Positions 867 to 2,180 of a stretch of DNA of 4,619 nt are shown here, one piece after another (position 1 is the stretch's first letter; every line of letters starts with the position of its first letter). The DNA is from a virus (lineage: Duplodnaviria; Heunggongvirae; Uroviricota; Caudoviricetes): the IMG/VR virus record IMGVR_UViG_2526164663_000051, one strand, 5' to 3'. A program made the translations under genes and the position numbers. Under the pieces are notes generated by a model. That model did no database searches, had not been told where the DNA came from, and saw only the letters and a program-made list of their open reading frames with translations.

Positions 867-2180
867 TCATTCTCCTGTTCTGCCTGTATCACTGCCCACT
901 TCATCCAGCCCCTTGACATCCTGCCACGGCCCGTCGCCAAACCTGACCTGCAAATGCTGAAAAAAACCCTGAACCCGTGTGGCATCTTTGGGGGCAAGAA
1001 AGGTCAGTCCGGTGATGAGTGCGCCATCTGTATCCGGGAACCAGCCATTGCTGTTTGTCTCAATAATGTTTCCCGGCCCCAGACGGAACCGTATTTGTGC
1101 CTCCCCCGGGTCGCCCTTCGGCCCCTGAGGTCCGGTTGCCCCCACCGGGCCAGCCGCACCTGTTTCTCCTTTCGGTCCCTGTGGGCCTGCCGGGCCTGCC
1201 GCACCGGTATCTCCCTTTGGACCCTGTGGACCTGCATTTCCCGTCAGACCGGTCTCTCCCCGCTCTCCCCTGTCACCTTTCGGCCCCTGCGGGCCTGCCG
1301 GACCAGCATCACCTGCCGGTCCCCGTTCACCGGTTGCCCCGACAGGGCCGGTGTCACCGCGCTCTCCCTTATCACCCTTCGGCCCCTGAGGACCCGCGGG
1401 CCCCTGTTCCCCCTTTGGCCCGGGAGGTCCCACCACGGTGGGGATTCGGTTTACGGCCTCTTCCGCCGCTATCCTGCTTTGTTCCGCTGACTGTGCGCTT
1501 TCTGCTGACTCCCGGGCTTTTTCTGTTGCGGTCGTTGCATCCCTGGCTGCATTACCGGCTGCACTTTCTGCCGTCTTTCTTGACAATTCAGCTTCTGCTG
1601 CACTTTGTGATGACTCACTGGCTTTTTGAGCGGCCGCAGAGGCCGAGGACGAGGACGCTTCCTCTGACTGCTTTGCAGCGGCTGCACTTTCTGCCGCCTG
1701 CCGGGCTGACTCCGATGCCTCCCCTGCTGAAGTGTCAGCATTTGCAGCGCTCTCTTCTGCCTGACTGGCTGATATGCCGGCATTCCTCGCGGACGTCTCC
1801 GCCTCTCCGGCATTCTTCTTCGCCTCCTCAGCGTGACGCGCCGCTTCTTCCACCATCAGTTCAAAACGACGCAGTGCCTCCGGCCGGACGTCATCCTCCG
1901 ACATGGCACCGAGAAAATCATTCAGCGTACCCGGTTGAGAATCTTCATACACGGTGATGGTCCCGGCATGTGACGGCGGGAATCCTTCCACCAACAGAAT
2001 GACGCTGTACTGACCGTACTCAACGTCCATGCTGTAACGACCGGCTTCATCCGGATTTTCAGAGGCCACCGTGTTCACCACCACCGTGCTGCTGGTCCGT
2101 CTGGCTTTCAGTTGAATGGTGCAGTTCTCTACCGGTTTTCCTGTGCCGTCTTTCAGTACACCTGAAATCTTTACTGCCAT
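867..2180 (-). CDS. stf: Side tail fiber protein with collagen-like Gly-X-Y repeat domain (lambda Stf-like N-terminus), 437 aa
   Basis: ATG at 2180-2178 with GGGG 5 nt upstream; the track's GTG at 2186 is 2 codons further up. N-terminus [25 protein letters not shown]...[56 protein letters not shown] matches the conserved N-terminal domain of lambda Stf / E. coli StfR-type fibers from memory. Then an Ala/Ser/Glu-rich low-complexity segment (~1452-1874), then 37 consecutive Gly-X-Y triplets ([19 protein letters not shown]..., nt 1098-1430), then a ~75-aa C-terminal domain. Stop TGA at 869-867. Confidence 0.85.
1098..1430 (-). repeat. Collagen-like Gly-X-Y coding repeat (37 uninterrupted triplets) inside the tail fiber gene
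   Basis: Translation of the minus strand gives an unbroken (G-X-Y)x37 run rich in Pro, Lys, Gln, Ala and Glu. The DNA shows imperfect tandem 9-27 nt repeats (ggcccctg / cctgccgg / ccagc motifs). The GC-rich repetition accounts for the long shadow ORFs in other frames. Confidence 0.85.

Follow-up and report, generated by a model that had tools for sequence, protein, structure and literature searches.

The 4,619-nucleotide DNA of IMG/VR virus record IMGVR_UViG_2526164663_000051, which is here called the window, carries on its minus strand a gene for a collagen-containing phage fiber (positions 867-2180). The gene very probably encodes an EPclA-type side tail fiber of a lambda-like, long-tailed prophage from the prophage pool of enterohemorrhagic and Shiga toxin-producing Escherichia coli (EHEC and STEC). 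Ghosh et al. (PLoS One, 2012, PMC3368898) gave the class its name and purified and imaged it. Both the protein class and near-identical genes are already known, and the finding is real, correctly read, and ordinary. All features by which EPclA can be recognized in a sequence are present, namely a PF08400 N-terminus (PfN), a coiled-coil segment of 116 residues (PCoil), a single unbroken collagen domain (Col), a PF06820 C-terminus (PfC), and a location in a lambdoid tail module. The domains, their register, the homology, and the locus were established in this analysis, while the trimer, the triple helix, the coiled coil, and the dumbbell shape come from the work of others on a 97%-identical protein.

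The coding sequence begins with ATG at 2180 and ends with TGA at 867-869, the stop being included in the coordinates, and its 437 codons contain no internal stop. A Shine-Dalgarno-like GGGGTG lies 5′ of the ATG, and an in-frame GTG is found at 2186, two codons upstream of it. Pfam recognizes PF08400, PF01391, and PF06820 in the product, and PHROG assigns it to the tail fiber families 366 and 3279. A first-pass annotation, made from the letters of the DNA, had placed a chimeric side tail fiber gene here, and its observation is correct in every detail: the interval is exactly a minus-strand coding sequence, and each of the described elements lies in it where it was said to lie (Table 1).

Table 1. 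Features of the fiber module and its surroundings, in window positions
Feature	Position	Strand	Basis
stf-type gene, very probable EPclA-type collagen-like side tail fiber, 437 aa	867..2180	minus	Open reading frame and translation; Pfam; PHROG; identity to ECs2717
PfN/collar domain and linker, aa 1-100, fiber part attaching to the tail	1881..2180	minus	Match to PDB 9E7M/9MGH; likeness to lambda Stf
PCoil, Ala-zipper heptad coiled coil, ~21 nm, aa 101-245	1446..1880	minus	Heptads, composition
Junction IPTVV, short, non-repetitive, presumed hinge between coiled coil and collagen, aa 246-250	1431..1445	minus	Read from sequence
Collagen triple-helix domain, 37 Gly-X-Y triplets, ~32 nm, aa 251-361	1098..1430	minus	Triplet reading, Pfam, PDB matches
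PfC (Phage_fiber_C), C-terminal trimerization knob, presumed distal adhesin, aa 362-437	870..1097	minus	Pfam PF06820; ECs2717 data
89-aa gene, Cys/His-containing N-terminal peptide and stand-alone PfC paralogue, in the place of lambda tfa	596..865	minus	Pfam, PHROG
Terminator-like hairpin between lom and stf	2197..2218	minus	Consensus scan; AGCCCGCCGGTTCAGGCGGGCT then T-run
Terminator-like hairpin after the 89-aa gene, end of the two-gene fiber module	556..581	minus	Read directly: AAAACCGGAG-TCCGG-CTCCGGTTTTT, and T-run

The protein with which the window fiber can best be compared is ECs2717, the EPclA fiber of prophage Sp14 of E. coli O157:H7 Sakai. It also has 437 residues and four domains that agree in kind, order, and size, and it is encoded in the same locus, consisting of J, lom, the fiber gene, and a gene of 89 codons. 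In a direct comparison to the Sakai Sp14 prophage, 425 of the 437 residues are shared without a gap (97%), and the two proteins differ by twelve substitutions, five of them in PfC. All three values listed for the EPclA architecture by Ghosh et al. in their Table 2 (437 aa in total, 116 for PCoil, 111 for Col) are matched, and the C-terminus is PfC rather than PfC2 or the other ends of EPclC and EPclD. The suggestion that the gene encodes a chimeric lambda-type fiber of the EPcl class from EHEC prophages, and the proposed comparison with EPcl proteins, were thus well founded.

ECs2717 is a trimer that dissociates upon denaturation, as studied by size-exclusion chromatography with multi-angle laser light scattering, analytical ultracentrifugation, circular dichroism (CD), and electron microscopy (EM). 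Its Gly-X-Y region shows the CD signal of collagen, with cooperative melting at 42 °C, its PCoil was experimentally shown to form a coiled coil that is alpha-helical, and its PfC domain trimerizes alone and permits rapid refolding of the collagen helix. In rotary-shadowing EM it appears as a dumbbell of 55-62 nm, whose thicker stalk (~14-16 nm) is joined by a hinge to a thinner one (~28-30 nm) (PMC3368898). The lengths expected from the residue counts of the window fiber (~21 nm for 145 coil residues and ~32 nm for 111 collagen residues) are consistent with these images if part of the predicted coil lies inside the PfN globule. Given its 97% identity to ECs2717, this allele would likewise be expected to trimerize, with a genuine collagen triple helix and an alpha-helical coil.

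The collagen region, claimed by the first-pass annotation as an uninterrupted (G-X-Y)x37, comprises 37 triplets (aa 251-361, window 1098-1430) that are unbroken in the frame of the gene itself, with none of the interruptions that would have spoken against it. Proline occupies the X position in 18 of the 37 triplets, and Y is chiefly Ala, Lys, Thr, Gln, or Arg. The run is not a product of chance, since the Pfam Collagen family (PF01391) matches the fiber with E = 3.4e-18 and collagen I chains in the PDB match it with values of up to E = 1e-70. The coding region contains a direct repeat with a 45-nt period (two copies, at 1145-1235), and the motif GPQGPKGD[KR]GERG[DE]TG occurs twice in the protein, 33 aa apart. 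Exactly the 33 aa between these two repeats are missing from the 404-aa allele of strain 2013C-4974, and this length variation agrees with the triplet-multiple length classes of Ghosh et al. (PMC3368898). On the opposite strand, two long open reading frames (ORFs), at 582-1490 (302 aa) and 1097-1957 (286 aa), run antisense to the collagen and coiled-coil coding region; neither has a Pfam match, and they are probably a by-product of a repetitive, GC-rich, stop-poor coding strand.

The preceding Ala/Ser/Glu-rich segment had been proposed to be a coiled coil, which is in line with both the data on ECs2717 and the heptads themselves. Between aa 101 and 245, 20.7 heptads follow each other with no stutter, and alanine is found at 15 of the 21 a positions and 16 of the 20 d positions. 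Serine is common immediately before the first core position (a). Compositionally, aa 101-250 contain 31% Ala, 17% Glu, and 16% Ser, with Leu, Ile, and Val together making up just 10 of the 150 residues. The spectral power at a period of 3.5 residues in this region was attained by none of 2000 shuffled sequences. Measured between the Pfam-defined PfN and Col, the stretch spans aa 134-249, that is 116 aa, which is the size of the PCoil of EPclA.

At the N-terminus, the Phage_tail_N profile (PF08400) is covered completely by aa 1-133 (E = 6.3e-69), and aa 1-93 match the collar domain of the solved Ur-lambda side fiber (PDB 9E7M/9MGH, “Tail fiber protein”; 9E7M chain Ta) with E = 2e-51. In the Ur-lambda structure, residues 1-91 of Stf form the collar domain that touches gpV and gpM, and a linker, residues 92-101, leads to a trimeric rod (PDB 9E7M/9MGH). 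The window fiber is 75% identical to lambda Stf (orf-401) over aa 1-160 and nearly identical to it (about 90%) up to ~aa 117. These matches support the proposal that the first ~100 residues are a lambda-type Stf N-terminal domain. The accompanying claim that the rest replaces the lambda shaft holds for the distal half, which Pfam gives entirely to Collagen and PfC. The point of exchange, however, does not lie at the end of the N-terminal domain: because lambda Stf also runs on into an Ala/Ser-rich coiled coil, the mosaic breakpoint is placed within the coiled coil, at ~aa 118-160.

Lambda Stf (P03764) and the window fiber therefore have in common a collar domain and linker followed by an Ala/Ser-rich trimeric coiled coil, and in both cases the gene follows lom. 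Lambda Stf differs in that a long proximal coiled coil of its own leads, by way of a hinge, to a gp37-like distal shaft and a tip that binds OmpC; it also requires the Tfa chaperone. In the window fiber the distal parts are swapped for the collagen helix and the PfC knob, and no tfa homologue is found downstream. Beyond ~aa 160, only compositional matches were obtained to orf-401, which represents the N-terminal 401 aa of Stf, its distal part (orf-314) not having been compared directly. Judged by sequence, the fiber appears to share only the collar domain and the start of the coiled coil with lambda Stf, and neither the distal tip nor the tfa gene of the lambda system.

The C-terminal domain, estimated in the first-pass annotation at ~75 aa, measures 76 aa and corresponds to Pfam Phage_fiber_C, with PF06820 matching aa 363-426 over profile positions 1-64 of 64 (E = 6.4e-36). 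Compared to ECs2717, five replacements fall in its 76 codons (G370A, N371S, N378H, D383G, and A400T) and seven in the other 361; the latter include A361T, in the last collagen triplet beside PfC, and Q259P in the collagen region. That the density of replacements is highest in PfC would fit an exposed, specificity-bearing tip, without being proof of it. A profile search of PDB sequences with the PfC alignment turned up no relative, only noise (best E = 0.31). AlphaFold2 monomer models are all-beta and of low confidence, with a mean predicted local distance difference test score (pLDDT) of 60 for the fiber PfC (22-sequence alignment) and of 58 for the 89-aa protein (26 sequences), the latter with an additional N-terminal helix. 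The alignments are shallow because the family consists essentially of two tightly conserved clades. With a profile of both PfC domains of the window, 276 proteins were found in a word-indexed collection, the named hits all being from Escherichia, and they split into a fiber-type and an 89-aa-type clade.

Regarding the function of the fiber, three chains would assemble into one fiber mounted on the tail like lambda Stf. By analogy to the geometry of lambda Stf, the collar domains (aa 1 to ~91) would dock at the junction of tail tube and tip, as they do in Ur-lambda. A flexible linker would then lead to a trimeric Ala-zipper coiled coil of ~21 nm (aa 101-245), a short hinge, and a collagen triple helix of ~32 nm, whose 37 triplets would be stabilized, without hydroxyproline, by proline in X and by charged pairs. 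The small trimeric PfC knob at the end would nucleate trimerization and the refolding of the collagen from the C-terminus. With a reach of ~55-60 nm, the fiber would bring the PfC knob into contact with the cell surface and speed reversible adsorption before J engages its porin. PfC is most likely the distal contact with the bacterial surface, its adhesin role and its receptor being presumed.

The first-pass annotation was fair in its caution over what the C-terminal domain binds. It had allowed that the protein could turn out to be a well-characterized fiber with a known receptor; a near-identical and biochemically characterized fiber does exist, but no receptor has been assigned to EPclA-type fibers or to PfC in the literature searched, and that literature offered no solved structure of PfC either. 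A long-tailed EHEC phage uses OmpC via J, not via the side fiber.

Several points weigh against an active, receptor-binding fiber. Neither adsorption nor a receptor has been tied experimentally to fibers of this type, and for the related EPclB fiber, found on short-tailed Shiga toxin (Stx) phages, the earlier assignment to BamA has come into doubt. The small PfC knob might be a mere folding nucleus, and its low-confidence models (pLDDT 58-60) yield no structural argument for a binding surface. Moreover, J contains a premature stop and a frameshift, so the prophage may not form infectious tails, in which case the fiber would act in trans or not at all.

The state of J is also what speaks for the possible, although rather doubtful, explanation that the fiber gene is an intact yet idle remnant in a defective prophage, kept by recent descent or by gene conversion between its many paralogous prophage copies, or used only in trans by co-resident prophages. 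In the window, J (2911-4619, minus) is broken into three ORFs by three single-base indels when compared to the intact J of strain 98E11 (locus L001). One base is missing from a GGG run and one is added to an A run 25 nt away (near 3918 and 3943), so that a premature TAG arises at 3924-3926; loss of a further base near 3469 causes a frameshift. In addition, the antirepressor gene antA at the prophage end is merely a fragment, and with up to 16 places per genome carrying the module there are ample templates for gene conversion. Against this explanation, the fiber gene and the 89-aa gene are both intact, and the differences to Sakai Sp14 amount to 22 synonymous versus 12 replacement codons in stf and 4 versus 0 in the PfC part of the small gene. 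The J indels may represent prophage decay or homopolymer-type assembly errors, as two of the three lie in homopolymer runs, and the coding of the fiber gene is unaffected either way. The question also bears on the state of one copy and not on the identity of the protein. It is very improbable that the collagen-like protein works for the bacterium instead, as an adhesin on its surface or a mimic of host matrix, like streptococcal Scl1/Scl2 or Legionella Lcl. The collagen-like proteins of other pathogens do bind host molecules, the gene family is overrepresented among pathogenic E. coli, and Ghosh et al. (PMC3368898) left such a role open. However, the N-terminus is a tail-docking Stf collar, with no export signal or cell-wall or outer-membrane anchor among the domain assignments, and the gene is part of a late tail operon, after J and lom. 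Immuno-EM placed the related EPclB at the tail, and Sp5 requires it for infectivity (Mondal et al., 2016); papers cited by Ghosh et al. (PMC3368898) tie expression to phage induction.

A further alternative assigns to PfC only the role of a trimerization and folding nucleus, the real receptor binder being the PfC paralogue encoded by the 89-aa gene, which would attach to the fiber tip or exchange into it and so serve as a tip adaptor replacing a Tfa-type chaperone. In favor of this, the small gene follows stf after a 1-nt gap (TGAcATG), has its own strong Shine-Dalgarno sequence (AGGAGA), and ends with a terminator-like hairpin. Its ORF is intact in all related loci examined (L001-L003 and Sp5), and the exact protein of the window is found on more than 999 contigs. 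Residues 28-89 match PF06820 (E = 5.5e-36) and PHROG 576, and this domain is 34% identical to the PfC of the fiber and has the core residues in common with it. Relative to Sakai, the PfC part has the 4 synonymous and 0 replacement differences mentioned above, while the N-terminal 27 residues, a variable peptide containing CGCGKHDDCEH, have 5 replacements. No tfa-like gene is present. Nevertheless, the explanation is unlikely. ORF68, the homologue in Sp5, is non-essential for plaque formation and lysogenization, and its authors favor a sequence reservoir for fiber variation (Mondal et al., 2016). A receptor binder would be expected to vary more than the fiber PfC, whereas the 89-aa protein varies less, and no virion proteomics data were found for it. 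Along related lines, it is distinctly improbable, yet conceivable, that the 89-aa protein, rather than being a silent recombination cassette or a chaperone, is part of the structure and docks on the trimeric PfC knob or exchanges into it. If true, these collagen fibers would have a modular, swappable receptor-binding tip, and the absence of a Tfa-type chaperone would be explained. The counterparts of the 89-aa protein are ECs2716, to which it is 94% identical, and ORF68 of Sp5. A relationship to Tfa-type chaperones was considered and rejected, as the protein gave no alignment to lambda Tfa at E <= 100. Given the collar, the tail-module locus, and the identity to ECs2717, the assignment as an EPclA-type side tail fiber is the favored one.

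Genes of this type are widespread. The nearest allele is WP_000268971.1 of strain 98E11 (99% identity, 3 residues different), whose locus is collinear with the whole window and adjoins ymdF/rutG, and a copy from a Stx1a-converting phage is 99.3% identical. At least 141 phage records carry >=80% of the fiber protein, most of them from Stx1a/2a/2c-converting phages. The segment comprising Col, PfC, and the downstream gene is present in 719 of 5426 complete E. coli genomes, at a median of 11 places per positive genome, in line with the polylysogeny of STEC. A collection of 15 billion proteins does not contain the exact 437-aa allele, and this is regarded as ordinary allelic variation, the nearest allele differing at 3 positions.

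Other collagen-bearing proteins resemble the window fiber to different degrees. EPclB (933W L0121, Sp5 ORF67/ECs1228, phi24B gp61) shares a PfN-type N-terminus, a coiled coil, a collagen shaft, and a PfC knob, and it too is followed by an 89-aa PfC-only gene (ORF68). Unlike the window fiber, it has 645 aa and two collagen domains split by a Pf2 repeat, and it sits on the podovirus tail of short-tailed Stx2 phages. The window fiber has one collagen domain, Pfam finds no Pf2 repeat in it, and it belongs to a siphovirus (J-containing) tail module. Streptococcus Scl1/Scl2, Bacillus BclA, and SPP1 gp12 likewise have a Gly-X-Y triple helix without hydroxyproline, with a globular trimerization domain that nucleates folding, but their homology to the window fiber is restricted to the collagen repeat, and they are associated with the cell surface, the spore, or the capsid and are not side fibers of the lambda type.

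EPclA-type fibers sit on phages by which genes for Shiga toxin and type III effectors are spread, and knowledge of the fiber's target would be relevant to host range and to engineering lambda-based delivery particles. As an annotation, the window gene has small weight, since sequenced STEC genomes and Stx phages with near-identical genes number in the hundreds, and the window offers no new handle on the PfC receptor, the PfC structure, or the role of the 89-aa paralogue.

Within the PfC family, a few unusual proteins were observed. In P0102 (4 members) the collagen region is joined straight to a PfC of the small-gene type, and in P0096 (1 member) the N-terminus of the small gene is joined to a fiber-type PfC; these could have arisen by true recombination between the PfC cassettes or by misassembly of paralogous prophages into chimeras. 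When 1.84 billion representatives were scanned exhaustively (HMMER) with the two-PfC profile, 93 matches came up, mostly E. coli fragments and chimeric gene calls, together with a handful of large proteins containing several partial PfC-like stretches. One of these, P0169 (565 aa), is clearly not the E. coli fiber and has four tandem PfC-like stretches (…VVVLxADE…ILxVRxADGTWxEIPA…) beside collagen repeats, while P0184 and P0186 look like matches to short repeat motifs. Such stretches hint that the C-terminal half of PfC may be a more widespread small module of collagen-bearing fiber proteins.

The order of genes on the minus strand, J, lom, stf, and the 89-aa PfC gene, is that of Sakai Sp14 and of strain 98E11, and J-lom-stf is also the order in lambda. 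Upstream of stf, the window contains the distal two-thirds of J, with immunoglobulin-like domains, a tail-tip domain, and the receptor-binding domain at the C-terminus, followed by lom. Terminator-like hairpins follow both J and lom. The hairpin that ends the fiber module was not reported by the consensus terminator scanner, and no Rfam RNA families were detected in the window. Between 2700 and 3400, the 3′ end of lom and the receptor-binding C-terminus of J belong to a different allele from that of 98E11 (66% protein identity), and the receptor-binding part of J is 99.4% identical to the J of long-tailed Stx2a-converting phages. A mosaic junction therefore lies just upstream of the fiber module.

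In strain 2013C-4974, the related prophage (L002 1765-3321) has nleC, a type III effector gene, downstream of the module, flanked by the antA fragment and the 89-aa PfC gene. In the window, the corresponding cargo (“moron”) site at 361-595 contains no nleC and is empty. Positions 1-360 (plus strand) hold the antA fragment at the prophage end, which encodes the N-terminal part of an AntA/AntB antirepressor; in the collinear RefSeq locus it carries the annotation of a truncated pseudogene. An ORF of 119 aa over this fragment extends beyond the homologous part into unrelated sequence.

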